Shown: positions 2,457 through 40,204, numbered from the stretch's first letter. The stretch is DNA of 64,000 bases from Pirellulales bacterium (GCA_040880125.1 JBBDJB010000029.1:12188-76187); one strand, 5' to 3'. A program made the numbers and translations. Notes: generated from the letters alone by a model not told the origin.

Positions 2457-3881
2457 ATGCCCCCACCAATGTCGTCTCCGTGCCCAAAGGCGTCCGAATT
2501 GAGTCCCGACGCAGAGCCCGAGGCCGTGTTTCCGCTCCCGTTGACGCCGTTCGAACGGTACTACCAACTGGATGACTCTCGCGAGTATCCCACGACTTTT
2601 CCGGTTGAGATTCGCTTCTCGGGAACGCTCGACCGCCAACACTTTGATTCCGCACTTGATTCCTCCGTACGCCGCCATCCGCTGTTGCGGGCGCGCATCG
2701 ACATCAGCTCCGGCAAACCGCGTTGGGTGCCTGTCGAGCGGACTGAGCCGGAGGTGGACTGGGATGACGAACAAGCGCCGATCATGCACGCTGGCGGAGA
2801 ATTCATCGACCTGGCCTCCGAGCCGGGGCTACGCACCTGGGTTCGCTCGGCGCCGGACCGGGCACGGGTACTGTTTCAGTTTCACCACGCTTGCTGCGAC
2901 GGACTTGCTGCGCTGGAGTTTGTAAAGGACTTTCTGGCATTGTACAAGGCTGCCAGAAGCGAGATGCCCGCGGGTTCGGAGCGAGGCGAGCCGGAATACG
3001 CGTTGCTGCTGCGACGCGGCGATTTCGTCCCCAGGCCGGCGTCGAGGCCATCGCTTGCGGTCACCCTTCGCGACACGTGGTATACGATCAAGGTCTGGTC
3101 GTGGATTCTAATCAAGAAGCCAGTTGTGTTAGCGAGTGGAGAAACAGCCCCGGTGACCGAACGCACGGAAGAGATCCTCGCCTTTGCCACCTCGACATTC
3201 TCGCAAGACGAGTCGCAGACGCTGCGCGAGCGGGCCGCTTCGTTGGGTGCACCTGTCAACGATCTGCTGCTGCGGGACTGGCTGCTCGTGCTGCGCCGCT
3301 GGAATCAGCAGCACTCTGGCACCGGCCGGGGAAGGTTTCGCATCAACGTGCCGGTTAGTGTGCGAACGCGCGACGAAGTGCGGATGCCGGCGGCCAATCG
3401 CATTGGCTACGCATTCGTCACGGACGAGGGCACGGCGGCCGACGACGCCGGATTGCTCGATGTCGTTCTCGAAGAAACGCGGCGGATTAAGCAGTGGAAG
3501 CTGGCACTGTACTTTCTCGGCGGGCTGGCCCTGGCCGGCAAATTTCCGTCGGTCATTCGCTGGGCCCTGCGGCGAAATGCGTCGCTCGCCACTGCTGTGT
3601 TGAGTAACGTCGGCCGCTTCTCGCCCGCAAGGTCGGTCAGGCGAGGGCAGAAGTGGACGTGCGGCGACCTCGTGCTAGAGCGCGTGTGTGGGGCGCCCCC
3701 AATTCGCAAACTGACGCGAGCGGCGATGATCGTTATCGAATATGCCGGCCAGACGACGTTCTGCCTGCGCTGCGATCCTCACTTCTTCAGCGCCGAACAG
3801 ACGCGTGCGCTGCTCGACGCGTACGTGGCGCAGATCAGCCAAACGGTAGATGGCAACAGCGAACCAGACCCCCAGGCGTGA
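2457..3881 (+). CDS. Stand-alone condensation-domain / CoA-dependent acyltransferase (PapA5/C-domain fold)
   Basis: Catalytic HHxxxDG (FHHACCDG), RHPLLRA, VPVSVR and C-terminal LSNVG motifs of the CAT-fold acyltransferases. Confidence 0.85.
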   Translation: MPPPMSSPCPKASELSPDAEPEAVFPLPLTPFERYYQLDDSREYPTTFPVEIRFSGTLDRQHFDSALDSSVRRHPLLRARIDISSGKPRWVPVERTEPEVDWDDEQAPIMHAGGEFIDLASEPGLRTWVRSAPDRARVLFQFHHACCDGLAALEFVKDFLALYKAARSEMPAGSERGEPEYALLLRRGDFVPRPASRPSLAVTLRDTWYTIKVWSWILIKKPVVLASGETAPVTERTEEILAFATSTFSQDESQTLRERAASLGAPVNDLLLRDWLLVLRRWNQQHSGTGRGRFRINVPVSVRTRDEVRMPAANRIGYAFVTDEGTAADDAGLLDVVLEETRRIKQWKLALYFLGGLALAGKFPSVIRWALRRNASLATAVLSNVGRFSPARSVRRGQKWTCGDLVLERVCGAPPIRKLTRAAMIVIEYAGQTTFCLRCDPHFFSAEQTRALLDAYVAQISQTVDGNSEPDPQA

Positions 3882-3890
3882 GCAGCCGTT

Positions 3891-4655
3891 TCACGCGTGT
3901 ACCGCGGCTCCGCCGTCGACTGTCAGCGTTTCACCCTGCACCAAGTCCGACAGGGCGCTGGACAAGAACAGTACACAATTTGCCACGTCGTCGGCGGTTA
4001 AGAAACGATCGCCGGTCATGCTTCGTAGCTTGCGCGAGGCGAATAATTGGTCGGCATAGGGGATGCGCCGGGTCGAGTCGGTCTCGACGAGGCCGGCCTT
4101 CACGATGTTGAGGTTTATGTCCTTGTCTCCCAACTCCAAGGCGAAATGCCGGATAAAGCTTTCCAGGGCAGCTTTCGAGCCCCCGACCGCGCCATACATC
4201 GGCAGCGCCATGTGCGAGCCGTGGCTGGAAATCGCCACAACCTTCGACCGTCCTTCGGCCCGCTGGAACAATCGCACGCTGGCTTGCACCAGGTGGATCA
4301 ACGCCATCACGTTCGTCTTCATCGTCGACTCAAAGTTCCTCTGCGTGATGGCCAGCATCGGCCGGAAGCCTCCGGTCGCGGCGTTGCTCACCAGGATATC
4401 AAGCTTGCCGAACTTCTCGTCGACGAACTCCATCATGGCGTCGATGTCATCCCGCTCGCTGATGTCCGCCTTGACGACCGCCGCATTGCGTCCCATCGCA
4501 GCGATACGCTCGGCGACTTCGTCGGCGGCCGCCTGCGAAGTGACGTAGTTGATAATCACGTCGGCGCCGGCTTCTGCCAGCCGCAACGCACAAGCACGGC
4601 CGATGCCACGAGATCCGCCAGTGACCAGGGCTTTGCGTCCACTCAAGTCGATCAT
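3891..4655 (-). CDS. Enoyl-ACP reductase, FabL-like SDR
   Basis: TGGSRGIG, NAATGGFRP and Y-x6-K (YGAVGGSK) spacing of FabI/FabL enoyl reductases, followed by AALES. Start moved to ATG 4655 (MIDLSGRK). Confidence 0.8.
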   Translation of the reverse strand: MIDLSGRKALVTGGSRGIGRACALRLAEAGADVIINYVTSQAAADEVAERIAAMGRNAAVVKADISERDDIDAMMEFVDEKFGKLDILVSNAATGGFRPMLAITQRNFESTMKTNVMALIHLVQASVRLFQRAEGRSKVVAISSHGSHMALPMYGAVGGSKAALESFIRHFALELGDKDINLNIVKAGLVETDSTRRIPYADQLFASRKLRSMTGDRFLTADDVANCVLFLSSALSDLVQGETLTVDGGAAVHA

Positions 4656-8400: not shown

Positions 8401-11400
8401 CCACGGTCGCCTCGACCGTCTGGCGCGTCTTCTTCTCGAAGCGGCTGGCTTGTTCAACGCCGGCGCCGTGCAGAATCCCTTCGATGGGACCGTCGGCGCG
8501 GCGGACATCGTCGAGCACGCGCGACAGTGCCGCACGGTCGGCGACGTCGCAAGCGTGATAGGTGTATCGAACGCCCGCCACCTTGAAGCTTTGCAGGTTT
8601 CGGTCAATCTCGATGGCTTTCGCCACTTGGGCCCAAGCTTCGTTGGGTTTTTTACCGTTCTTGCGGGCATCGACGATCACGCGCGTCCGCAACTGGGCCG
8701 TTTGCTGTTCGTCGAGATTGCGCCAGTCCGAATCGATGGGCTCGGCCGGAGTGGTGCCGATCAGGTGCAGCTTCAGGCCGAAGCGGCGTGCCAACTCCAG
8801 CCCGCATCTGGCGGTGATGCCGCGAGCCCCGCCGGTGAGCACCCAGGTGCCGCCGGGACGGACGTCGCTATGGGTCTCTAGGTCAGCGTATTCCGGCAAG
8901 GCAACCTGCAGGTAGCGCCGACCGTTGACAAAGGAGAGCTCGTAATCATTCGTGCCGTACGCGAGTTCGCGACAGATATTAGTGGCCAATCGGCCGGGTG
9001 ATTCGCCACGCGGAGCATCAATGGCCTTGGCCAAAAATCCCTTTTGCTCACGCATGATGCCGTATTCGAGCAGCAGCGACTTCATCAACCCGGTCGCAAA
9101 TCCTGACTCGGGCGAAGCGACCTTTCCGGAAAATCCCAAATCGCCGCCGAGATCGAGAGTGGTGACGACGGTGCAGTCGCGAAGACGTTTGGCGTCGGCT
9201 GCCAGTTGCATTTGGCGCTGGCACAGGTAATACGGAAGCAGCACTCGCTCGCGATAGACCTGATCGAAGCCCGCCGGATCTGTGCGGTCTGTCAAAGTTT
9301 CATCGCGCAGCCCGGTGAGAAACAGATGCATGATCGGCTGTTGCTGCCAGTGGCGCTCAAGCTCGGTCACGGCCGCCTCGGGCGAGTGGGATTCCGCCAA
9401 TCGCACGACCGTGGCGCCGCCTTCGGTCAACCGCTGGCAAAGTGCGTCGGCAAGCGAGTTGCTGCCACAGACGGCCGCCGCCCCTTTGAAAGCGGGAAAG
9501 TCGGCCGGCTGCTTGTCCCACGGCATAGGAAACATCCGCAGCACAAACCGCATACTCTCGCGATCGTCGGACGAACGGTCGAGCAAGTCGTCGGAGGATG
9601 GGCTCGCCGTTGTCACTTTCGGCTCTGGCGCTAGCTGCGGGGCGGGCGTTTCCTTCGCCGTAGGTGGGGATCCGTTGCTGCCGAACGTAGCTGGGTCGCC
9701 CGCCGGCGCCGCCGGAAGCAACGCCCCGACGTGTACGCGCTGGCGAAGCGTCCCACAGTCGAGCAGCAAGTCGCCTGCGGCCGCGTCGACCACGGCGATC
9801 AGCCGCAAGGTCCCGCGCTCCGGCATGTCGGCTAATGCCTGCAGCAGTTCGCTCGCGGTTTGGGGTGAATCAGAGGCGGTAAGCCGCTGCCGGAGCCAGT
9901 CGAAACGTTCAAGCGATGCTGCCGGCGCGGGTACTGACGCGGTGTGCAGCACGCAATGATTTGTGGCTACGACCGGCCCGGCCGCGTCTTGCTCCGCCAG
10001 GTGTTGGCCGTCGTGCTCGGCCGCACAGAGGCGGCGTTGCGCTTGATGGCTTAAGCACGTCGTCCAACCGCGAGACGTCTTTACGCCTCGTAGGCTGCTG
10101 GCGGCGCGTTCAAGCGTGTCGCTGCGCTGCAGCAGGCCGTCGATGCGCATCGTGGTGGGGTGCGATGCGGAACCGTTCGAGCCGGCGGCGGAATTGAGGA
10201 GTGCGCCGGTCGACGCTGCCAGGCCGTTGGCATTAAGACCCACCAGGCTGCCGACCAGTCCGGCGAAAGTAACCGTGGCACATGCCCACCCCTGGGCTGG
10301 CTCCCGTACGAGCACGAAGGGCGTGAGCACTTCGGTCAGGGCGGCCGGCAATGAGAGCTCACCGACCAAGCCGTGCAAGACGCCCGCGGATGATGCACCC
10401 GGGAGCAGTGCCACCTGAGCGATCCCGGCGGCGAAGTCGCTCTGCACGGTCAGGTTGAGCGCGGCCAGATTGCCCGCCGGCACTTCCAACGCATCGGCCA
10501 ATCCGCGTAGCTCATCCCATTGATCGGTGGTAAAGAAAACCTGAGGGTTGGACCGGGCCTCGGTCGGCAGCGGCAATTCGCCCCAGTCGCCGTCCGTCAG
10601 GTCAGCGACTCGCCGGAGGAGAAGTTGGATCTCCGTTTTTTTTTCCAACCCGTGCTGTCGCCCCATCTCATACGGGGTGCCGCGCACGTGCAGGATATCC
10701 ACTTTTGTCGCGACGCATTCCGCCGTGGCGGCAGCAGTCATTCCAGCAGCACTACTTACCGCGGGCGGTGCAGTCGCGGGGCCAGGCGCCGCGGGCTCGG
10801 AAGCGGCAGGCGTTTGCGTCGGCGCGGCAGTGTCCTTTTGCGGAACTTTGGCCAGGAACTCTACGATGTGGCGCAGCGTGGGAAAATCATCGAGCGTCAG
10901 GTCGTCGGTGGGCGTGACGTCGAAATACTCCTGCAACTCACCGAACATCTGGGCCTTCTTGATGCTGTCGATGCCCAGGTCTGCTTCCAGGTCGGCGTCG
11001 AGCTCGACCACTTCAGCCGGGTAGCCGGTTTGCTCGACGACAAAGTTGATCAAGAACTGTTCGAGCTCGGCAACGTCAACGCCAGAGGCAGCGGGTGAAG
11101 CCGCTTCGGGCGGAGCCGTAGACTGTGGCGACGCAACCGAGGTGGGAGCCGGTACAGCCGCGGTCAGCGGTGCCGATGTAGCAGTCGGTGCAGGTGCTGC
11201 GGCGGGTTCCGGCTGGGGTGCTGCGCCGGACGGTGCTGGGGTGGACGTAGCAGCGCCCTTTTGCGGAACTTTTGCCAGGAACTCCACGATGTGGCGCAGC
11301 GTGGGAAAATCATCGAGCGTCAGGTCGTCGGTGGGCGTGACGTCGAAATACTCTTGCAACTCGCCGAACATCTGAGCCTTCTTGATGCTGTCGATGCCCA

Positions 11401-28029: not shown

Positions 28030-30165
28030 ATGCACAGCAAGCGGGTAAACCATCTGATGACTTTCCACCTGTGTGGTGCCGCCGCGGCCTGCCGCGCGCT
28101 AATCGCCGTACTGCTCGCGCCGGCCGTCGCGTCTGCACAAATCGATACGCCGGCAGCCAGGCAGGCCCGTGCGGCGCTCACCGCCGTGGGCGAAGCCTAT
28201 TCACAGCGGCCGGAGTGGCCGCGTTTGTGGGAACAACTCGGACTGCCCGACGTCCAATACGAACTGCAGGCCGGCGAGTCGGGCAATCCCGCCGTGTTAG
28301 AGGCAGCCGTGCAGGTGTTGCGCTCCGGCAGCGCTGCGCGGGTCAACGATCCGCCACTTGTGCGGCTGGCCAGAACGCTCGAGATCCGGGCGCGGGACCT
28401 GACGCCGCTCCCGGCCGCCGACTGGCCTGCCGCCTGCCGGGATCAGGCCGCAGATTACGCTCCGGTGACGGACGAAGCTCTCGACGCGGGTGGCCGAGAG
28501 TTCTCGCGCCGGTTGAACCAGTTCGCCGCCTGGTTCCCAGCGGCAGCACAAAACGGCAGCTCCTGGAACGAATTCCTCTTTTGGGAAGAAACTCGTCGGC
28601 TGGCAACGCCGGAAGCGGCGGCCACGAGCGCAGCGACGCTCGATCGCCTAGAGACGCGCTGGGCCAGCGCGCCGAGCGTGTGGGATGCCGGCTTGTTGTA
28701 TGAAACGTCCCTGGCGGCGCGGCAGTACATCCGGCTGCTGCGTTCGTATCAAAAGGGCGAGACCGCCCAGCAGCATGCCGCCGCATGGAACGCATTGGCC
28801 GACCAGCTCGAAGCCATGCCGGATGGTGAAACCGACACCTCGCAGGTCGCCGCGGCCGTGAACGAGCGAGAAAGCCTCGGCCAGGCCTCTCGGCTCACCG
28901 CTTCGATCCGACGCGCGCTGTCGCTGCCGAATCTCGTCCTCCACGTGCCGACCGACTGGATCGAAGAGCAACTCGCCAGCACAGTCGACGAACCCTACGA
29001 AGTCGGCGGAGTGTTTGCCGGCACGTATAGCCGCGGCAGCGGAAGAATGGTGGGCACGCTGCGCGGCATCGTGTTGCCCTCGGAGGCGGTGGGGCGGTGG
29101 CTGATGCGATTCGACGGCACATCGACGGCGCGGACGTCCGGCTCCAGCGACCGCGTCTATGTTGCGAGCAGGGCGACAACTCGTCTGGCGGCGTTAAAGC
29201 CGTTCATGCTCGATGCCCGTGGACTGTCGCCGGGGAATGCACTGGCCACAGCTTCCACGTCGATCCAGTACGAGCAAATTGACGCGCCGGGCATCCTTGC
29301 CATGAGGCGTAACGCGGCGGTCCAGGAAACCTATTCACGCCGCCCCCAGGCCGAAGCCGAAAGCGCGGCCTATGCCCGCAGCTCGATTGTCGAGCAGATG
29401 AACGCCGAAGCCGACCAGATCGCTCGCGAGTTCAACGATTCGTATCATGCACGATTTCGGGATCCGCGCGTTAAGGCGCACCGACCGAGTCCCGACGTGC
29501 GGGTACGCACGTTCAGCGGTGTGCTGCGCTGGGAATGCCGGCTGGAAGGACCACACGACTTTGCCGCCCCTACGCCACCCCCTGCGTACGAGCCCGGCAG
29601 CGAAATCGTGATGAGCCTGGCCGCCTCGGCGCTGGAAGAACAGGCGGCCGTCACGCTGGGCGGCCGCGCGATGAGCGGAGATGAAATGTCAGAGTCGCTG
29701 GGAAGTTCGCTGGTCCGTGACAGCGAAGATGGCGGCGACGATGTCCACGTCACTTTCGAACCCGACCCTTGCGACGTGAACTTCGAGGATGGCGCGGTTC
29801 ACGCCCGGCTGTACATCACCAAATTTGACGCTGGCGACGTGCAGTATCCGGCCATGACGGTCGATCTCGCCTACAGGCCCGAGGAACGGGACGGCGAGGT
29901 GGTGTTCGTCCGCCAGGGGCGGCTGCGCGTCTCTCCGCTGACACGCGAGGGCGATAATGCGCCGACGATCAGCGGACGCCAGCAGGCGCTACGCCTGGCC
30001 GTGCAGCGGAGGTTGGAGAGATTGCTTCCCGACGAACTGCGTTGGTCGGAGGCGTCGGTGCCGCTGCCTGGCGAGGGCGACGCCGTTTTACAGCTCGAGC
30101 GAGTCCGGCTTATTGGCCCCTGGTTGCAGATGGGCCTTTCGGCCACAGTGCCCAGCGGGAGCTAG
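28030..30165 (+). CDS. Secreted hypothetical protein (helical N-half, beta-rich C-half)
   Basis: 711-aa ORF, GAGG-like SD, signal peptide ending VASA|Q, 13 bp after the upstream gene. Confidence 0.75.
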   Translation: MHSKRVNHLMTFHLCGAAAACRALIAVLLAPAVASAQIDTPAARQARAALTAVGEAYSQRPEWPRLWEQLGLPDVQYELQAGESGNPAVLEAAVQVLRSGSAARVNDPPLVRLARTLEIRARDLTPLPAADWPAACRDQAADYAPVTDEALDAGGREFSRRLNQFAAWFPAAAQNGSSWNEFLFWEETRRLATPEAAATSAATLDRLETRWASAPSVWDAGLLYETSLAARQYIRLLRSYQKGETAQQHAAAWNALADQLEAMPDGETDTSQVAAAVNERESLGQASRLTASIRRALSLPNLVLHVPTDWIEEQLASTVDEPYEVGGVFAGTYSRGSGRMVGTLRGIVLPSEAVGRWLMRFDGTSTARTSGSSDRVYVASRATTRLAALKPFMLDARGLSPGNALATASTSIQYEQIDAPGILAMRRNAAVQETYSRRPQAEAESAAYARSSIVEQMNAEADQIAREFNDSYHARFRDPRVKAHRPSPDVRVRTFSGVLRWECRLEGPHDFAAPTPPPAYEPGSEIVMSLAASALEEQAAVTLGGRAMSGDEMSESLGSSLVRDSEDGGDDVHVTFEPDPCDVNFEDGAVHARLYITKFDAGDVQYPAMTVDLAYRPEERDGEVVFVRQGRLRVSPLTREGDNAPTISGRQQALRLAVQRRLERLLPDELRWSEASVPLPGEGDAVLQLERVRLIGPWLQMGLSATVPSGS

Positions 30166-30434
30166 TGAGGCGAGGATAGCATCGATTACCAGTGGCGGCA
30201 TTTCATTGACATCTTCATGTGCCAGATGCTGCCCGGGGACCCGCTTTTCGGCAGGAATTGCCAGGCGGACGTGCCGGTCGCGCTTCTGGCCCGATGCCCC
30301 AAGGTCGATGCCCCTGAATCACTTTCGATCTCGAATGGGGAATCAACCTACGCTTCCTACCAGGGCGATCTGGCGCTTTCGATGTGCATTGGAAATTTGT
30401 GTGGCCCGAACTAGAGCCAGACGGGGGACGGAGC

Positions 30435-31277
30435 ATGAACGTGCCCCGAGCGCCGCGTAGCGCTATCGTCACAGGAAGCGCGAATGGACTTGGCCGTGCC
30501 ATCGCGGTCCGGCTGGCTCGAGATGGCTGGCGACTTGCGCTGGCCGACGTTGACGATGAGGCAAATGGCGAAACGCTCGCGCTAGTGGAATCACAGGGAG
30601 GAGCTGGGCAAGTTGAGCATTTGGATGTCACCGATCCGGTGGCATGGCAGCGCCTGGTGGACCGTTTGCGCCGGGACTGGCCGACGCTCGACCTGCTCGT
30701 AAACAATGCTGGCGTTGCCACTTCCGGTCGAATCGGGGAGCACACGCTGGACAACTGGCGTTGGATAATCGACATCAATTTGTTCGGGGCCATCTATGGA
30801 TGCCACCATACTGTGAACTGGATGAAGGAGAACACGCGCGGAGGGAACATTGTCAACATCGCGTCGATCGCGGCCGTAATGTGCGCTCCAGATATGGCAG
30901 CGTACAACACGACCAAGGCGGGGTTGGTTGCGCTTTCGGAAACGCTTTACTCCGAATTGCAACCAGCTAACATCGGAGTCACCGTCGTTTGCCCTGGATT
31001 CGTGCAGACAAATATTCTTGATCGAGCCCGCTATCGCAGCCACGCTCAACTTGAATTTGCCGCGCAGTCGATGCGCTTCTCGCGTCTATCGGCCGACCAG
31101 TTGGCCGATCGACTGATGCGAGCAATTGAGCGAAATGAGCTCTATCTTTTTCTACCCTTCAGCGCGCGGTGGAATTGGTGGAGCAAACGCCTCGCGCCAC
31201 GGTGGTATTTGAATGCCATTGGGCGTAGCTTTCGAAAGCTATTCTCTGGTGACGTCGCAGATCAGCGCAACGAATAG
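30435..31277 (+). CDS. Short-chain dehydrogenase/reductase (classical SDR)
   Basis: TGSANGLG, NNAG, YNTTK, CPGFVQT. Start at ATG 30435 after GGAG. Confidence 0.9.
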   Translation: MNVPRAPRSAIVTGSANGLGRAIAVRLARDGWRLALADVDDEANGETLALVESQGGAGQVEHLDVTDPVAWQRLVDRLRRDWPTLDLLVNNAGVATSGRIGEHTLDNWRWIIDINLFGAIYGCHHTVNWMKENTRGGNIVNIASIAAVMCAPDMAAYNTTKAGLVALSETLYSELQPANIGVTVVCPGFVQTNILDRARYRSHAQLEFAAQSMRFSRLSADQLADRLMRAIERNELYLFLPFSARWNWWSKRLAPRWYLNAIGRSFRKLFSGDVADQRNE

Positions 31278-31351
31278 CCAGATGAATGCCGCCACCGCGA
31301 CCCTCTCCGGAATGCGGGCTGTGGGCTCCCCAAGATTTTCTTCGGATTTTA

Positions 31352-31378
31352 TGTCCCCCCGGCGGCCGGGCTCCCGCT
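31352..31378 (+). promoter_or_regulatory. Candidate ECF-sigma promoter TGTCCCC-N16-CGCT, copy 1
   Basis: Identical motif and spacing recur at 32369-32395; AT-rich tract just upstream. Confidence 0.6.
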
Positions 31379-31475
31379 TGGTCAGTTAACAAGGGACGAC
31401 ACGACCGGCCAAACGGCCGCGAAAAGTCGCCCAGGACCAAAACCACACGGGAAAACGAGACTCAGGAGCCCAATC

Positions 31476-32228
31476 ATGACCACTCGCAGCCGCAACACCA
31501 CGATCGTCGCCGTCGCCCTTCTCGCCCTGATTACCGCCGCTCAGGCCCAGGCCGGAAACCCCTTCGACAACGTCCGCAAAGTCATCAATCACGTCGAGCA
31601 CGCAGTCGGCGGCGGTTCGAACCAGATTCTGCCGTACCCGCTGCCCTATCCGCAGCCGTGCCCGACTCCCAACCCCTATCCGCAACCGCAGCCGCAGCCG
31701 TGGCCGGTTCCCGAACCGCAACCGCAGCCACAGCCCGTTCCGGCCTCCTACTTCCTCGGTGTATACACGTCGACGGTGCCGGTCGGGCAGGGCGGAGCAG
31801 TGGCCAGCGGTCCGCAGGTGCGAGTGGTCCCCGGCTACGAGCAGCAGGTCTACGGGCAGCGGGTGAACAATATTGTTCCGAATTCCCCCGCCTTCCATGC
31901 CGGCCTGGAGCCGGGCGACGTCATCATTAACGCCAATGGCTACTCGATGGATAGCGATCAGCACCTCCGGGCCGCTATTGCCGACTCGCAGGGCTACCTG
32001 GAAATGCAAATCCTCGACAGCCGCAGCGGACAGATCGTGTTGGTGGTCGCCGAGCCCGAGGCTCAAACCCCGGCCGCGTATGCTGTGAATCCTGCTCAGC
32101 CCCAGACGGGCGGCACGATTCAGCCCGCCAGCCAGCCGCAAGTTCTGCAGAGCAGCGGTCGGCAGACCCTCGGCACGCAAACGCTGCAGGGTACCGGCGG
32201 CCGTCGTCCTCCGGTTCGTCGCCGCTAA
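31476..32228 (+). CDS. Secreted PDZ-domain protein with Pro/Gln repeats
   Basis: AGGAG SD; signal peptide (AQA|Q); PYPQPQP repeats; PDZ motif YFLGV...VNNIVPNSPAFHAGLEPGDVIINANG. Confidence 0.88.
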   Translation: MTTRSRNTTIVAVALLALITAAQAQAGNPFDNVRKVINHVEHAVGGGSNQILPYPLPYPQPCPTPNPYPQPQPQPWPVPEPQPQPQPVPASYFLGVYTSTVPVGQGGAVASGPQVRVVPGYEQQVYGQRVNNIVPNSPAFHAGLEPGDVIINANGYSMDSDQHLRAAIADSQGYLEMQILDSRSGQIVLVVAEPEAQTPAAYAVNPAQPQTGGTIQPASQPQVLQSSGRQTLGTQTLQGTGGRRPPVRRR

Positions 32229-32262
32229 GCGTGAGGGCTTTCAAGCACGTTCCACTCAACGA

Positions 32263-32297
32263 GTCGCCGGTCCTTTCGAGGGCCGGCGGCTTTTTTT
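32263..32297 (+). terminator. Rho-independent terminator
   Basis: Stem GTCGCCGGTCCT / TTCG loop / AGGGCCGGCGGC followed by T7. Confidence 0.9.
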
Positions 32298-32368
32298 ATG
32301 CGCGCACAAGCTCGCGCAGGATGTGCGGTTAGGCGGATTGGAAAACATCGAAGAAATCAAAGAAACGC

Positions 32369-32395
32369 TGTCCCCTACGGGTGGCCGCCCTCGCT
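32369..32395 (+). promoter_or_regulatory. Candidate ECF-sigma promoter TGTCCCC-N16-CGCT, copy 2
   Basis: Same motif and spacing as 31352-31378; lies after the terminator, so this gene needs its own promoter; A-rich tract upstream. Confidence 0.6.
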
Positions 32396-32515
32396 GGTTG
32401 TAGTAACGGCGGCCCGAGCGTGCTCTCGCAAAACGCACGACTGCCGCTGACTCGAACTTGCAGGTCCGGTGGAGGGCCTGGTTCACACGTCCACACAAGT
32501 ACGGGGAGAATCGTC

Positions 32516-33610
32516 ATGTCTCGCAAACTACTCGCCACGATGCTGCTGGTTGGATCGCTTCACGCTGCGGCGGTACAGGCTGTCGAGCCTCGCCGTTCGC
32601 CGGCACACAGCGGCACGGGCTCCGCCGCGTCGACCGTGCTTCCGCGGTTACAGCGGGGCGCGAACGGTCAGGTGATTGCTCGCAACTGGAATCAACAAGC
32701 ACAACTGGGAGGACAACGGCCGGCGGCCCGACTTCAACCCGCGCAGCCCAGCACGAGCGTCAATCCGCAGCGACTCGCCGGGCAATATCCGCAAAACGCC
32801 TGGAAGCGCGGCGCCGGTCGATTCAAGGCGGTGAACGGCCGTGTGGTCGCTCCCCGCGCAAACCTCAACGCCGCCAATCCGAACCGCATGGCGGGCCAGT
32901 TCAATCAGAATGCCTGGAAGCGCGGCGCCGGTCGGTTCAAGGCAGTGAACGGCCGCCCGGTCGCTCCCCGAGCAAATCTCAACGCCGCCCATCCGAATCG
33001 CATGGCGGGCAAATTCAATCAGAACGCCTGGAAGCGCGGTGCCGGTCAATTCAAGGCAGTGAATCCCAAATCGACGACACGATTGGCCGGTGGCAGCCGT
33101 GTCGGCACGGGCGCTGCGAAGAAGTTCCTCAAGAGTGCCGGGACTGCCGGTGCCGTGGTTGGAGGAGCCGGGCTGGTGGCCGGCGCGGTGTCGCAAGGTC
33201 GGCAGCTCGATGCCGATCTCCGTGCGGGTCGCATCACGCAGGCCCAGTACAATCGTGCTCAAGCGACTGGTGCCCTGAACGTCGCCGGCGGCGCACTGGC
33301 CATCAAGAAGATGAATCCTGCCAGCATGGCGATGAACGTGGCCATCGGCACCGATCCGATCAGCCTCGGCGTCGATGCTGTCGGGGATCTGATCAACGGC
33401 ACCAACAACGCCCAGACATCGATCGATAATATCGGCCGCACTCTGGACGGGCATGCCAAAGGCGTGGAGAAGCTGGTGACCAATCCGTCCGGCTGGGCCC
33501 AGGACACGGGCAAGAACATTGAGAACACGGCCAAGGACGTCGGCAAAACGGTAGATAACGCGGCCAAGGACGTCGGCAACTTCGTGGGCGGCATCTTCGG
33601 CGGCAAGTAA
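32516..33610 (+). CDS. Secreted cationic repeat protein of unknown function
   Basis: GGGGAG SD before ATG 32516; signal peptide (AVQA|V); 38-aa tandem repeats; Gly/Ala hydrophobic middle; amphipathic AKDVG-repeat C-terminus. Confidence 0.8.
   Translation: MSRKLLATMLLVGSLHAAAVQAVEPRRSPAHSGTGSAASTVLPRLQRGANGQVIARNWNQQAQLGGQRPAARLQPAQPSTSVNPQRLAGQYPQNAWKRGAGRFKAVNGRVVAPRANLNAANPNRMAGQFNQNAWKRGAGRFKAVNGRPVAPRANLNAAHPNRMAGKFNQNAWKRGAGQFKAVNPKSTTRLAGGSRVGTGAAKKFLKSAGTAGAVVGGAGLVAGAVSQGRQLDADLRAGRITQAQYNRAQATGALNVAGGALAIKKMNPASMAMNVAIGTDPISLGVDAVGDLINGTNNAQTSIDNIGRTLDGHAKGVEKLVTNPSGWAQDTGKNIENTAKDVGKTVDNAAKDVGNFVGGIFGGK
32762..33066 (+). repeat. 114-bp coding tandem repeat, about 2.7 copies
   Basis: Units start at 32762, 32876 and 32990 and encode (N/H)PxR(L/M)AG(Q/K)(Y/F)xQNAWKRGAG(R/Q)FKAVNGRxVAPRANLNAA; the third unit is partial. 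Confidence 0.92.
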
Positions 33611-33642
33611 AACCCCTGCAGCCTCCGGCGCTGAATGATTCG

Positions 33643-33680
33643 AGGGAGCCGCTTCCACCGGAGGCGGCTCCCTTCGTTTC
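33643..33680. terminator. Hairpin terminator between convergent genes
   Basis: AGGGAGCCGCTTCC - ACC - GGAGGCGGCTCCCT followed by T-rich sequence on the + strand. Confidence 0.75.
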
Positions 33681-33692
33681 GTGTTTGCGCGG

Positions 33693-35915
33693 CTAGCGAC
33701 CGTCGCGATCCGCTGGTTCCAGCGCGACGACCACCCAACCGGTGTCGGCGACATTCGCCGGCCGGCCGTGAATGATGACCGGCTCCATGGCGGCCAGGTG
33801 GGGCGCTTTGTCGACCGGATCAACGAAGCCCTCGAGAATGCTCGAGCGTGCCTCGCCGAACAGCCGGCCCGGGCGGATGCGATCACGGCGCAACGACAAG
33901 GCCATTTGGAGAGTATCGGCACTAAGTCGAGGCAGGTTGCCATCTTCACCGCGTACGCCCAGCTCCGAATGATGCAGGACCAGTCCCGGCTCGTCGTCGA
34001 GCTGGTCGACGCGGGTGTCCACCAGCATTGCCCGGCGGCCGATGGCGAACTCGCCCAGTTCCACGCACATGCCCAGAATTCCGATCCGCTGCCGTTCGGC
34101 ATCCTCGGTGGGGCCACTCCAGATAGGCACGGAAAAGGCCACCATCAACGTCGCCGTGTTGGTACTCTCGTAGACGGCGGACATGTGGACGATTTTGTCC
34201 GCCAGCGGTCGCAATCCTTCCGTCTCCGGCGAGCCGGGCGGCAGGTCGCGGCCTCGTCCGTGAAAATAGTCCCGGTGCTGATAGCTCGCGCCGATGCTTT
34301 CCGCCTCCGGCACGCGGGCGAGTTGCGTTCCTTCAATGGCGTTGAGGATCCAACTTGCCGTCTTCACCGAGGAGTTATTGGCGATGTACCGTTTATCGAG
34401 CCACGTCTGGATGTCTTCCTGGACCTCAGGGTCGGGCATTCCGCTCTCGAGAAGTCCGCCGTTCACCTGCTGCATCAGTTCCTGCAACCGCGGCGAGGCG
34501 GCCTCGGACTCCATGATGCGCCACCGGAGTTCAATCTCTTGGGCGACCGACTTCGCCAGGAAGAGCGCCGAGGAACGCAGGTTGTCCCGACGTGCGACCT
34601 CGGCGACGTATTGCGCCGATTCAGCATCCTCGCGGGCAGTTCGCTCGTTTCCGGCCAGCTTGCCCAACCAAAGTGCGGATATCGCCACAATGATCATGCA
34701 AGTGAGCAGCCCGATCGCGGCAACCTGTGCCGCTAGGAGATGTCGCCGCGCGAACCGCGCCACTTTGCTCGACAGAGGGTCGGCCATCGCTTGAATTGGT
34801 TCGTCGGCCAGGTAGCGTTCCAGATCCTCGGCCAGTTCGTACGCGGTGAGATACCTTTGCGAAGGCTGCGTCGCCATCGCCTTTCGGCAGATGGCCTCCA
34901 ACGCGCGGGGGACATCCGAAGTGATTTCCGTCGGCCGTGGAAGCCGGCCTTCGACGATCTTCGTCTTAATCTCCATGAGCGACTCGCCCGTGGCCGGCGG
35001 TACGCCGGTGAGAATCTTAAACAGCGTCGCGCCCAGGCTGTAAACGTCGCTCGCGGGCGTGGGTGCCAGCTCGGAAGCCTGTTCCGGGCTCATGTACGCC
35101 GGCGTTCCAGCACCGAGGCTGGAAGAACTGCCGGAACTGCCGGAGCGCGGCATAAGCGTATTTTCGCCGCTCTGGCGGAACCGTTCGTCGCGCATCACCG
35201 GCGAGGCCAGCCCCCAATCGACGATAATTGTTTCACCGTACCGGCCCAGCAGGATGTTTTCCGGCTTGATGTCCCGGTGCACGATGCCGCGGTTGTGTGC
35301 GTAGGCGATCGTCTTGCAGACCGAGACAAAGCTCTGCAGCAGCCGGCGGTGCTCCACACTCTGTGCGTCGTACCGCGGATGCTCGCCCTGGAAGCAGTGG
35401 CCGATCGCCTCGTCGAGCGTCATCCCATCGATGAAGCGCATGGCGTAGAACAGCCGTCCGTTCGAGTCCTCCCCCACGCCGTACAGGGGAATCACGCCGG
35501 GGTGTTCGAGCCGGCCGGTGACTTCGGCCTCAAGTGAGAACCGCTGCCGCGCAGCGGGGTCGCCGGCCAGCGTAGCGTGAATGAACTTGACGGCCACCTT
35601 CCGATGCACCTCGCGGTCCTCACCGACAAACACGGCGCCCAAGCCACCCTTGGCGTGAAACTCCAGCGAGGCGACGTGCGATGTGATCGTGAGCTGATTA
35701 TCGTCGGCCTCGCCTGAGTCGCCGTCCATGCGGAATTCGATCGATTCGATCGCGGCGGTGCGGGCGCGCACTTCGTCGAGCAAGTCGGGGTGCGCTTGAC
35801 AGAGAGATTCCAAACGGACAGATTCGCCGCGCTGACGGGCATCCTCCCACTGGTCGAGGAGATCTTCAATCAGATCGTGATCGGTCTTGGAAATCGTGCT
35901 GGCTTTCCTGGGCAA
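33693..35915 (-). CDS. Membrane Hanks-type Ser/Thr protein kinase with C-terminal Cache-like sensor domain
   Basis: GGLGAVF, VAVK, HRDIKPEN, DWGLA, GTPAYMSPEQ; one TM helix; dCache-like RDYF...SAVY...VAFSVPI...GWVVV. TTG start uncertain. Confidence 0.9.
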   Translation of the reverse strand: MPRKASTISKTDHDLIEDLLDQWEDARQRGESVRLESLCQAHPDLLDEVRARTAAIESIEFRMDGDSGEADDNQLTITSHVASLEFHAKGGLGAVFVGEDREVHRKVAVKFIHATLAGDPAARQRFSLEAEVTGRLEHPGVIPLYGVGEDSNGRLFYAMRFIDGMTLDEAIGHCFQGEHPRYDAQSVEHRRLLQSFVSVCKTIAYAHNRGIVHRDIKPENILLGRYGETIIVDWGLASPVMRDERFRQSGENTLMPRSGSSGSSSSLGAGTPAYMSPEQASELAPTPASDVYSLGATLFKILTGVPPATGESLMEIKTKIVEGRLPRPTEITSDVPRALEAICRKAMATQPSQRYLTAYELAEDLERYLADEPIQAMADPLSSKVARFARRHLLAAQVAAIGLLTCMIIVAISALWLGKLAGNERTAREDAESAQYVAEVARRDNLRSSALFLAKSVAQEIELRWRIMESEAASPRLQELMQQVNGGLLESGMPDPEVQEDIQTWLDKRYIANNSSVKTASWILNAIEGTQLARVPEAESIGASYQHRDYFHGRGRDLPPGSPETEGLRPLADKIVHMSAVYESTNTATLMVAFSVPIWSGPTEDAERQRIGILGMCVELGEFAIGRRAMLVDTRVDQLDDEPGLVLHHSELGVRGEDGNLPRLSADTLQMALSLRRDRIRPGRLFGEARSSILEGFVDPVDKAPHLAAMEPVIIHGRPANVADTGWVVVALEPADRDGR

Positions 35916-35921
35916 CGTGGA

Positions 35922-36542
35922 TCATTCGCCGGGGATTTCTCCATGCAGGCGCTGGTGCAACAGTAGCTTCGCGGAGCGCCACAGCCGCTTCACGTGCCGC
36001 GGCGAGACGTCCAGCAGCTTGGCCGCTTCTTCCTGGTTCATTTCGTGGTACCACAGCAGGTCGACGACCTCGCGCTCGCGCTGCGGCAGCTCTTGAACGG
36101 CGACGTGAAATTCGGCCCACTCCTGCATGCGGCGCGGATCCTGGCTGACTTCGGCCCGATCGTACAGTTGCGGCTGAACGGAACCTTCGGCGGCCGCCGG
36201 GCGACGCTGTGTGAAGTGATTGGCGCCCAGCCCGTGCGGGCCGTGATAATGGCGGCACATGTCGATCAGTTCGCGCCGAATTTGCAAAGCCGCCAGCCGG
36301 AAAAAGTGCCGCATGTCGGTGATCTGAACTTGGTGCAATGCCTGATAGAGTCGCAGCGAAGCGTTCTGCAGGATATCGTCCGTCTGTTCCCAACGGCCGA
36401 CGCGCTCGTACTGGTTTTTCATCTTCCGCGTCATCCGCAAAAGTCGGTCGTACGCATAGTTGATCAGTTCGCCCCGCACGCTCGTATCGCCAGCCTTTAT
36501 CTGGACAATGCATCGCTCGATCCCGACGGTGGCATCAGACAT
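35922..36542 (-). CDS. ECF RNA polymerase sigma factor (kinase-associated type)
   Basis: Region 2 QTDDILQNASLRL...IRRELID; region 4 LPQREREVVDLLWYHEMNQEEAAKLLDVSPRHVKRLW; directly upstream of the kinase. Confidence 0.92.
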   Translation of the reverse strand: MSDATVGIERCIVQIKAGDTSVRGELINYAYDRLLRMTRKMKNQYERVGRWEQTDDILQNASLRLYQALHQVQITDMRHFFRLAALQIRRELIDMCRHYHGPHGLGANHFTQRRPAAAEGSVQPQLYDRAEVSQDPRRMQEWAEFHVAVQELPQREREVVDLLWYHEMNQEEAAKLLDVSPRHVKRLWRSAKLLLHQRLHGEIPGE

Positions 36543-37541: not shown

Positions 37542-38975
37542 ATGACACTACTGCGTCTATTCCGGAGGGCTCTCCAGGGTGGGTGGCTCATCGGCATGCT
37601 GACGCTGGGACTGGTGGGATGTGCGGGTCAGCAAGTTGCCTGGACGGTGGCGCCGATCCAACAGGCAGCTCCGTTTTCGCCCAGTGGCCAGGCCGACATG
37701 CCCGATCTCTGGTGGATCGCACTGGACGATCCGGCGCTGAATCTCCAGATCGACCATGCCCTAGGTGGCAATTTCACGCTCGCCGCCGCCTGGGAACGAA
37801 TGCGCGCTGCCCGCGCCCTGGCCCGGCGCGAAGCATCGGACCTTTGGCCGGATGTTGACGGATTCGGTGAAGCCGCGGGCTCGTTCAGCACCGAGGGGCC
37901 AGATGAATCGGAGTTCGCGCTGGGCGTCGATGCTGCCTACCAGGTGGATCTGTGGGGGCAAATCCGATCGCGCGTCCAAGCCGAGCGCCTGCGGGCCGCG
38001 GCGACGCTGGCGGACTACCACGCCACGGCGCTGACGCTGTCGGCCGACGTCGCCCGCACGTGGTTCGCACTCATCGAAGCGCACGCCCAATTGGCGCTGC
38101 TCAACGAACAGATCGAAACCAATGTCACTGTGCTCGGACTGCAAGAATCGCGATTCGCGGTGGGGCAGATTCGCCTTGCCGATGTGCTTCGCCAGCAGCA
38201 ATTCGTCGAGTCGACGCGTGAGCAGGTAGTGGTCGTGCTATCACAGATCGCCGAGCTGGAACACCTGTTGGCGGTGCTACAAGGCCGTGCGCCACAGGAG
38301 ACGAGCTATGACACCGGAACGTTGCTGCCCGATCTGCCGCCGCTGCCTTATACCGGCCTACCCGCAGAACTGGTCAACCGGAGGCCCGACGTTCGCCGCG
38401 ATTACCTCGCGCTGGAGGCCGCCGATCGCGATCTGGCGTCGGCCATCACCGCACAGTACCCCCGCATTAATCTGACGGCATCGGTGGTCACCGCCGCGGA
38501 AGATCCGGGGAATCTATTCAACGAATGGATTGCCTCGGTCGCGGGCCAGATCATCGGGCCGCTGTTCGACGGCGGGCAACGCCGTGCCGAAGTCGATCGC
38601 ACCGCCGCCGTCGTCCGTCAGCGCCTCGCGGAGTACGGCCAGACGGTGTTGATCGCCTATAGCGAAGTCGAAGACGCCCTCGCCCGCGAGCAGTACCAGC
38701 GCGAGCGCATCGCGCTGCTCAACACGCAGCTCGATCTGGCCCGGCGGGCTTCCGTGCGGTTGCGCGAGCAATACATCTTCTTCGGCGAAGAGACCGATTT
38801 CCTCGACGTGCTGAGCGCGACGACCGTAGAGCAACGCTTGCAGCGCGAGACGTTGTCGGCGAGACTGGACTTGATACTGACCCGCATTGCGCTCTACCTC
38901 GCCCTGGCCGGTGACTTCGAAGGCCCCGCACTAGAGCCGGTTGCCACCCCCGCTCCGGAGCACGTCCCGCAATGA
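37542..38975 (+). CDS. RND efflux outer-membrane lipoprotein (NodT/TolC family)
   Basis: Lipobox LVGC; [27 protein letters not shown] motifs. Confidence 0.92.
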
Positions 38976-40204
38976 GTGACGCCCCGAAACCGCGACGAAA
39001 ACGGCACTGGCTTCGCATCGTGGGAACGGTAGTCGCCTGCCTTTCGATTCTGGGCGCGGCCGCGGCCGCGATTGTGGTGATCAACAAGACCGAGCCGACC
39101 GCACAACAGATCGAGTTAACGCGCAAGTCCGCAGCGCTGGTCGAAACGATCACCATTGAACGGGGCACGTACCGGCCTCGCCTGGTCGTGCTCGGCAACG
39201 TCCAGCCGGCGCAGGATGTAATTCTCAGCTCGCGGGTGAGCGGGCAGATCGTCGAGCAATCACCCGCGTTCGTGCCGGGTGGGACGGTGCGCCAAGGAGA
39301 TCTGCTGCTGCGGATTGACCCGGCCGACTTTCAAAACACACTGGCCGTACGCCAAAGCGAACTACATCAGGCCCAGGCATCACTGGAGATCGAGCGGGGT
39401 CGCCAGATCCTGGCAAAAAAGGAGCTTGCCCTGCTGGAGGGTTCGATTGACGAGGCGAACCGCTCGCTGGTGCTGCGTACCCCGCAGCTTGAATCAATCC
39501 GCGCCGAAGTGGCCGCAGCCGAGGCGGCAGTGGAACGGGCGAATCTCGACCTCGAGCGCACTCAAGTCAGGGCTCCATTCGACGCCCAAATCCTCAGCCG
39601 CTCAGTCAATGTTGGCTCGCAAGTCGCGCTTGGCGATGCGCTGGCCCGACTAGTCGGCATCGATGAATACTGGGTCATGGCATCTGTGCCCGTCCGCAGT
39701 CTACGCTGGCTGCAGTTTCCCGACGCCGATGGCCAAGGCTCGCCAGTCACCTTGCGCAATCCCGACACATGGCCCCCCGGCGTGCAGCGCCACGCGCAGG
39801 TGTTCCGTATGATCGGCACCGTCGATCAGCATACCCGGTTGGCCCGTGTGCTGATCACCGTGGCTGACCCGCTGGCGCGCAATACCGACGCCCCGCCCCT
39901 GATCGTCGAAACGTTGGTCGAAGCCCACATTGAGGGCCGGCCCATCGAAAACGTCATTCGACTCAGCCGCGCCTACATCCGCGAGCGGGACACGGTTTGG
40001 GTCATGAAAAACGGCATGCTGGACATTCGCCAGCCCGAAGTCGTCTTTCGCGACGCCCAGCACGCCTACATCGGAGAAGGTCTGCAAGCCGGCGACGAGG
40101 TGGTAACCACCACGCTAGCCACCGTCGCCCAAGGAATCGGCCTCCGCAAGACGAACGTCCTGCCCGAACAAAATCAGAATGCGGTCGGGGAGACGGCGGA
40201 TTGA
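38972..40204 (+). CDS. RND efflux periplasmic adaptor (MFP)
   Basis: N-terminal TM, lipoyl half-motifs (VSGQIV...[14 protein letters not shown]; VRAPFDA), coiled hairpin; ATGA overlap with the upstream gene. Confidence 0.92.

Follow-up and report, generated by a model that had tools for sequence, protein, structure and literature searches.

A conserved TGTCCCC-N16-CGCT motif as the probable cognate promoter of a kinase-paired ECF sigma factor in a Pirellulales bacterium

In a 64,000-nucleotide (nt) stretch of DNA from a Pirellulales bacterium (GCA_040880125.1, JBBDJB010000029.1:12188-76187), hereafter called the window, the genes of two secreted proteins lie beside a gene pair encoding a sigma factor of the extracytoplasmic function (ECF) type and a membrane Ser/Thr kinase, and each of the two is preceded by the same bipartite motif, TGTCCCC-N16-CGCT. 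The analysis described herein suggested that the ECF sigma factor whose gene lies at 35922-36542 most probably has this motif as its cognate promoter, an assignment to which we give a probability of roughly 0.8. The existence of the motif, its conservation, its linkage to orthologues of the sigma factor and of the targets, and the predicted domain folds of the proteins were shown by computation. In the genome of the window, the regulon would comprise two, possibly three, promoters.

As summarized in Table 1, both motif copies match exactly in the two boxes and in the spacing, in full agreement with the original prediction made from this DNA, and the window contains these two matches and no others, where shuffled sequences predict 0.05. 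The other particulars given in that prediction were also recovered from the sequence. Namely, each copy is preceded by an A/T-rich tract and followed by GGT..AGT..AAC, with TAAC at an equal offset in each, and the distance from the end of CGCT to the ATG, given earlier as about 100-120 nt, is 97 nt for copy 1 (ATG at 31476) and 120 nt for copy 2 (ATG at 32516). The two plus-strand target genes, each closed by its own terminator consisting of a hairpin and a T-run, converge on the sigma and kinase genes, which form a minus-strand operon with the kinase gene beginning 7 nt past the sigma stop codon. In the first target protein (250 amino acids, aa) a signal peptide is accompanied by a Pro-rich stretch and by a PDZ domain, and the second has a signal peptide and three repeats of about 39 aa (364 aa), for which Pfam gave a sub-threshold match to DUF1521 only.

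The evidence from other genomes lifts the match between the two upstream regions above chance. Homologues of the sigma factor were detected at E up to 1e-35 in 49 of the 251 sampled genomes of the order, and the comparison covered 22 sigma-orthologue loci with wide flanks and, later, 20 more distant loci (212 kb); the kinase gene follows the sigma gene in most orthologous loci. A loose scan revealed that TGTCC[CGA][CG]-N16-CGC[AT], located after a T-rich tract, adjoins the sigma gene in several genera. When the spacer of the pattern TGTCC[CGA][CG]-Nx-CGC[AT] was varied from x = 8 to 26 over 23 loci (295 kb, the window included), x = 16 gave 16 matches in 8 loci, two of them the window's own sites and four of them tandem copies in one genome, while each other spacing gave 0-5.

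We then scored both strands of the whole 4.77-Mb window genome with a position matrix built from non-window sites (10 effective sites, with tandem copies down-weighted and one doubtful site omitted). Promoter 1 ranked first with 34.4 bits and promoter 2 ranked second with 18.2 bits, followed by the next match at 15.5. Since the training sites had been picked by the core pattern, the scoring was repeated with the core columns removed, and the window sites were again ranked first and second among the 52 core matches of the genome (18.1 and 1.9). The flank-only score of random positions had a mean of -24.9 and a standard deviation of 9.6; none of 200,000 such positions reached 18.1, and 0.2% reached 1.9 (p 0.002). 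The flanks thus support promoter 1 very strongly and promoter 2 moderately. Lower matches were considered as further targets and set aside: C18:60278 and C35:36367 lie within long open reading frames (ORFs), C56:28020 lies on a terminator-like hairpin, and C25:27095, although intergenic, has a background-level score and is separated by about 500 nt from a gene for a 1564-aa protein; it was not counted as a target.

The matrix also recovered sites in loci that had played no part in its construction. An unanchored scan of the 20 later loci, none of which was in the training set, gave 11 matches of at least 14 bits in 8 loci, where about 0.22 would be expected from a background of 5 such matches per 4.77-Mb genome outside the window sites. 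The untrained loci of the first set G132, G237, G013 and G150 showed the same architecture with TGGCC replacing TGTCC, and altogether a site of at least 14 bits was present in 12 of 35 untrained sigma loci. The site stands directly upstream of the sigma ORF in L038, L100, L128, L129, L143 and, weakly, L098; in L088, L089, L090 and L091 it precedes a small signal-peptide gene located before the sigma gene; and in other loci it is divergent from the sigma gene or lies just past the kinase gene. Every site precedes an ORF by 35-170 nt and points the same way as that ORF. Such a placement is what is usually seen for ECF promoters, with a signature of autoregulation in the orthologues and not in the window itself. 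Another orthologous pair is found in G017, where a small PDZ gene also bears the motif.

ECF-type promoters are composed of two parts, -35 and -10, separated by a fixed spacer of about 16-17 nt, and have a CG-containing -10 element. The window motif shares these properties, as seen from the spike at N16 and from the trinucleotide CGC, which is invariant in 28 of 28 sites. The consensus of these non-redundant sites was gATTT..TGTCC[CG][CG]t......gg..Cggc.tcCGC[TA]t.g...a.TAg.g, in which T36 occurs in 20 and A37 in 21 of the 28. The conserved TA(G), which corresponds to the AGT..AAC noted earlier downstream of the two window copies, may be read from the alignment as the transcription start region.

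Conservation at the targets themselves was seen in the closest relative, G251, the only one that a contig search with the sigma factor yielded; its sigma factor is 73% identical and lies adjacent to a kinase. G251 has two near-identical orthologues of the PDZ protein (56-58% identical) about 45 kb from the sigma gene, and both genes carry TGTCCCC-N16-CGCT about 98 nt before the ATG, at 32.8 bits. The repeat protein has one orthologue, in G251, encoded 18 kb from the sigma gene and preceded by CGTCCCC-N16-CGCT 119 nt before the ATG, as compared with 120 nt in the window. In pairwise alignments between the window and G251, the two boxes were the longest conserved runs, and the remaining upstream sequence had diverged. 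Since the boxes are kept in dispersed and otherwise diverged upstream regions, the motif travels with the target genes and not merely with their neighbourhood. Beyond G251, the repeat protein had no homologue among 40 relatives and a protein atlas search gave nothing; metagenome scans for PDZ orthologues, by protein and then by alignment, found no relative. Among the fetched loci, homologues of the PDZ or repeat protein adjoin kinase or sigma orthologues in G017 only. In G001, a 33%-identical PDZ homologue was found, with no sigma orthologue in the genome and no site at that gene.

Three further features of G251 were observed. The PDZ target is duplicated together with its promoter as a near-identical tandem unit of about 4.8 kb (L123, G251:C5, 7851-8752 and 12639-13540). 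At L108, the alignment of the kinase orthologue (8641-10835) is broken into three segments, either abutting or with an overlap of a few bases, which suggests frame changes arising from an assembly error or a broken gene, and a 35-residue sigma-like fragment is located at 3831-3935. Finally, the PDZ proteins of the window and G251 end in an invariant basic tail, RRxPVRRR, though the preceding approximately 50 residues have diverged; this tail may be a sorting signal or a ligand of the protein's own PDZ domain.

The earlier claim that the motif is the promoter of this particular sigma factor was strengthened by its N16 recurrence beside the orthologues in many genera, including positions upstream of the sigma gene, and by its retention at the orthologues of both targets in G251. 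Co-occurrence across genomes pointed in the same direction. The extended pattern TGTCCSS-N16-CGCW-N8-TA gave 211 matches in the 251 genomes as compared with 474 for the reversed control; the counts were 68 vs 97 in the 48 genomes with a sigma orthologue (the window genome excluded) and 140 vs 377 in the 202 genomes without one. The resulting odds ratio of 1.9 (p 0.001, or p 0.002 after collapsing tandem copies) is only suggestive, as related genomes are not independent.

Several observations weigh against this assignment. The strict motif TGTCCCC-N16-CGCT occurs 3 times in the 4.77-Mb window genome and other spacings occur 0-5 times, so that there is no genome-wide excess of N16; a short degenerate core was likewise not enriched in five orthologue-bearing genomes, with 36-74 matches each, similar to the reversed control. 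Promoter 2 barely exceeds the best chance match of the genome. Among the 35 untrained sigma loci, 23 gave no site of at least 14 bits within the examined flanks, and in G251 neither a target gene nor a motif site lies near the sigma gene. Where ECF43 has QTTA, the sigma factor has QT[DE]D with two acidic residues retained, and therefore need not depend on phosphorylation. Furthermore, the genomes hold many ECF paralogues, one of which could read the motif.

In the genome-wide motif scan, proposed as a check in the original prediction, the flank-including matrix placed the window sites first and second, and the strict motif and the short core stayed at chance frequency. Because these latter two are at chance genome-wide, specificity rests on the flanks and the location, and both regular expressions were replaced by the matrix for genome-wide use. 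As for the window alone, when the two 200-nt upstream regions were dinucleotide-shuffled 5000 times, 359 of the resulting pairs had some exact 7-mer and an equally spaced 4-mer in common. In view of this frequency and of the missing N16 excess, the match is true yet not compelling by itself; taken alone it is weak evidence and could be an after-the-fact coincidence.

We considered three other explanations of the motif. The first is that it is a real regulatory site read by another factor, either a paralogous ECF sigma factor or a DNA-binding regulator, its nearness to the sigma-kinase pair being incidental. In keeping with this idea, sigma and kinase paralogues are numerous in each genome, the G251 sites are 18-45 kb from the sigma gene, and the window's own sigma gene has no site. 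On the other hand, adjacency to the orthologues of this very sigma factor recurs in many genera, and in 5-6 loci the sigma ORF itself directly follows the site; ECF promoters typically have the architecture seen here, in which two unlike parts are held at a strict 16-nt spacing and dyad symmetry is lacking; and G001, which has a PDZ homologue without a sigma orthologue, has no site. We judged this explanation unlikely.

The second is that the conserved block represents a transcribed leader or a dispersed repeat, such as an RNA element or a unit resembling repetitive extragenic palindromes, instead of a promoter. The conservation runs about 14 nt past CGCT to TA(G)AG, the spacers are G+C-rich and sometimes palindromic, and four copies in the genome G209 lie in common 178-nt repeat units. 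These G209 repeats, however, are whole duplicated small genes with their promoters, and outside G209 the copies have only the two boxes in common. Moreover, the spacer sequence is free to vary, the 28-site alignment shows no stem with covariation, the site always keeps its upstream position and orientation with respect to an ORF, and an Rfam search of 31000-33800 gave no match at the gathering score, the sole match at E up to 1 being sub-threshold and located on a terminator. A leader or repeat is a less probable explanation than another reader. The remaining explanation, a chance likeness of two G+C-rich upstream regions, could draw on the shuffled pairs and the lack of a genome-wide N16 excess described above, but is contradicted by the spike at 16-nt spacing, by the other-genome matrix ranking both sites at the top, and by the G251 orthologues of both genes keeping the motif at the same ATG distance amid diverged sequence, and is hardly credible.

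The sigma factor was identified as a member of the ECF class (group 4) by PF07638 Sigma70_ECF (8e-15, residues 25-214) and Sigma70_r4 (1e-9), and the ORFs around it showed no anti-sigma domain. Alignment of 20 sigma factors (the window and 19 of the fetched loci) revealed the motif RWEQT[DE]D with invariant Trp51, Thr54 and Asp56 and an acidic residue at position 55 in 15 of the 20, as well as a conserved linker, GPxGxGANHx[TS]. Upstream of the window sigma gene, no matrix match of at least 8 bits was found, consistent with the earlier remark that the motif is absent there; a sigma-70 consensus scan found nothing in that region, and when the sequence before the window sigma gene was compared with its G251 counterpart, no clear common block emerged, so that the operon's own promoter was not identified by these scans.

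The kinase carries a Pkinase domain (PF00069, 1e-31, residues 89-356) and was classified from its sequence as a Hanks-type Ser/Thr kinase, a detail that adds to the original prediction of a kinase with a Cache domain. Although Pfam detected no sensor domain and no Cache family at E up to 0.01, an AlphaFold2 model of the C-terminal 314 aa, built with 16 orthologues, had a predicted local distance difference test score (pLDDT) of 90 and a predicted template modelling score of 0.88. A Foldseek search with this model gave 143 Protein Data Bank chains at E up to 0.001 (best E 3e-9), and the top matches were the double-Cache domains of DctB, PctA/B/C, Mlp24/37 and Tlp3, with template modelling scores by target of 0.6-0.7. 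The periplasmic domain of the kinase, which one hydrophobic helix separates from the kinase domain, is thus predicted to have the double-Cache fold, in which a long N-terminal helix carries PAS-like modules in tandem outside the membrane, and the Cache assignment, on which Pfam is silent, is upheld by the structural model. The matched domains, at 9-19% identity, are carried by histidine kinases or chemoreceptors, unlike the Ser/Thr kinase here.

From these features we infer a mechanism in which binding by the sigma factor, the start site, phosphorylation and the ligand of the kinase are the proposed elements. Region 4 of the sigma factor would read the -35 element as TG(T/G)CC[CG][CG] and region 2 the -10 element as (t)cCGC[TA], and the conserved TA(G), some 9-10 nt beyond it, would be the point where transcription begins. 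The sigma factor would in this way drive the two neighbouring monocistronic genes, encoding the secreted PDZ protein and the secreted repeat protein, and not its own operon. The co-transcribed membrane Ser/Thr kinase would set sigma activity post-translationally: its periplasmic double-Cache domain would bind a ligand, and the kinase would phosphorylate the sigma factor, which could then engage core RNA polymerase, by analogy with EcfP/PknT and EcfK/PknS. Candidate phosphosites are the invariant Thr54 in the sigma-2.2 sequence QT[DE]D and the conserved Ser/Thr in the linker GPxGxGANHx[TS].

This analogy is with group ECF43. In EcfP/PknT of Vibrio parahaemolyticus and EcfK/PknS of Xanthomonas citri the kinase is reported to phosphorylate sigma-2.2 and the linker and thereby to enable polymerase binding, and the acidic DxxD (DAED) of sigma-2.2 is replaced by QTTA or STTA in ECF43 sigma factors (PMC8999054, PMC13147305). 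The present system shares with ECF43 an adjacent transmembrane Hanks-type kinase, the lack of an anti-sigma factor, a Q-T at the same place and Ser/Thr in the linker; the position correspondence in sigma-2.2 was set by eye, the solved structures having been aligned over sigma region 4 only. It differs in having QT[DE]D with the invariant Asp56, so that the loss of DxxD is only half, in its phylum, and in matching the PF07638 model. With the QT present and acidic residues kept, phosphorylation dependence of the sigma factor is a plausible possibility.

A wider reading of the circuit can also be envisaged, in which the module would be a self-sensing secretion circuit: the double-Cache kinase would detect a product of its own regulon, giving an autoinducing, quorum-like loop and not a stress sensor. 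We regard it as a speculative and improbable reading, which was hinted at by the finding that the promoter precedes secreted-peptide genes in G209. For the window, the candidate ligand or co-sensor in such a loop is the secreted PDZ protein, a conserved target in three genomes.

The G209 locus itself (L097, 7800-11700) has the promoter before four tandem paralogous genes of 41-49-aa peptides, with sites at 9031, 9281, 9551 and 10514. Each peptide combines a segment of the signal or transmembrane kind with a Cys-x6-Cys loop at its C-terminus. The cluster is flanked upstream by a Peptidase_C39-like gene with four CxxCxGxG motifs and downstream by a VKOR-DsbA-like gene, and looks like a secreted disulfide-peptide cluster under this sigma factor.

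Returning to the promoter and its probable reader, ECF sigma factors with a partner Ser/Thr kinase number in the dozens in planctomycetes, and none of them, to our knowledge, has been characterised. Another useful comparison is ECF41, whose promoter is TGTCACA-N16-CGTC. The motif described herein resembles it in its 7-nt -35 element beginning with TGTC, its 16-nt spacer and its CG-containing -10 element, and differs in having CCCC in place of ACA and CGCT in place of CGTC. The ECF41 sigma factors are governed by a C-terminal extension and not by a kinase, as tabulated in a review (PMC8999054).

The ECF re-classification (Casas-Pastor et al., 2021; PMC7826278) describes planctomycetal groups with a kinase gene downstream of the sigma gene. 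Therein, the ECF59s2 and ECF62 kinases have one transmembrane helix, ECF59 shows "a conserved TC in -35" and has more residues linking sigma2 to sigma4, and the predicted target promoters of ECF61, ECF62 and ECF217 are "not conserved" (PMC7826278). As compared by these written descriptions, the present system is like ECF59, ECF62 and ECF217 in being a planctomycetal ECF sigma factor with a membrane kinase directly downstream and no anti-sigma factor, and the "conserved TC in -35" of ECF59 fits TGTCC. Unlike in those descriptions, a full two-part motif and targets are available here, and the motif frequently belongs to genes next to the sigma operon instead of to the operon itself. For most of these groups the classification, which looked upstream of the sigma genes, gives no conserved target promoter, and the word "Cache" was not found in the portion of the supplement consulted (PMC7826278). 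A full-text search for the names ECF59, ECF61, ECF62 and ECF217 found no later study, and no description of such a system turned up in a literature search on dCache together with Ser/Thr kinase and ECF; an earlier mention of the motif is possible, the survey being incomplete.

The kind of system is thus known, and the motif, the targets and the Cache-type sensor are the new detail that makes it testable. The locus and its relatives supply a promoter consensus, a very small secreted-protein regulon and a defined sensor fold, by which a poorly understood class of regulators gains a readable target sequence and an annotation-level guess becomes experimentally approachable. Inspection of neighbouring genes, beyond the sigma factor's own operon, can recover motifs for groups recorded as "not conserved".

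Table 1. Positions of the motif copies, target genes and sigma-kinase operon in the window.
Feature	Position	Strand	Basis
Promoter 1: -35 TGTCCCC, 16-nt spacer, -10 CGCT	31352..31378	+	Exact match; matrix rank 1
Promoter 2: -35 TGTCCCC, 16-nt spacer, -10 CGCT	32369..32395	+	Exact match; matrix rank 2
A/T-rich tract before promoter 1 (UP-like), aagattttcttcggatttta	31333..31351	+	Sequence; consensus gATTT at -5 to -2
A/T-rich tract before promoter 2, aaaacatcgaagaaatcaaagaaacgc	32343..32368	+	Sequence
Conserved TA 9-10 nt past CGCT, putative start region of promoter 1	31387..31388	+	28-site consensus
Conserved TA, putative start region of promoter 2	32404..32405	+	28-site consensus
Target gene 1, 250-aa secreted PDZ-domain protein	31476..32228	+	Pfam PDZ_2 1e-7; signal peptide
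Terminator of target gene 1	32261..32300	+	Strong hairpin, 14-pair stem, then T-run
Target gene 2, 364-aa secreted protein with three repeats of about 39 aa, no known family	32516..33610	+	Translation
Terminator of target gene 2, between the convergent genes	33642..33674	+	Strong hairpin, 15-pair stem, T-run
Hanks-type Ser/Thr kinase, one transmembrane helix, predicted periplasmic double-Cache domain, 740 aa	33693..35915	-	Pkinase 1e-31; predicted fold
ECF sigma factor of 206 aa, its gene just upstream of that of the kinase	35922..36542	-	PF07638 8e-15; sigma region 4

The genes on either side of this region were also inspected. Upstream of the sigma operon and divergent from it, the window carries an outer-membrane efflux gene (OEP, 3e-27) followed by a HlyD-type membrane-fusion gene (37542-40204), and on the side of the target genes a 711-aa ORF without a Pfam match (28030-30165) is followed by a short-chain dehydrogenase gene (30384-31277).

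Several repeated or conserved sequences that touch the motif patterns were encountered during the scans. In G000, a recurrent palindromic unit, ..GGCTGGCT TGT CCAGCC.., overlaps TGTCCAG at C18:44333, C47:12436, C54:72068, C56:28020 and C31:64145; by its appearance it belongs to a family of scattered hairpins or terminators that has nothing to do with the promoter. In G160 and G010, a dispersed repeat starting TGTCCGCAGATGACGCAGAT is present in dozens of copies over many contigs and inflated the pattern counts there. A near-identical 37-nt stretch, TGTCC(G/C)CGCCCGGATG.TC.GT.CGCTCGGT.AG.TA, occurs in the five genomes G037, G069, G095, G068 and G003, and probably belongs to a coding sequence that is conserved among them, as opposed to a promoter.

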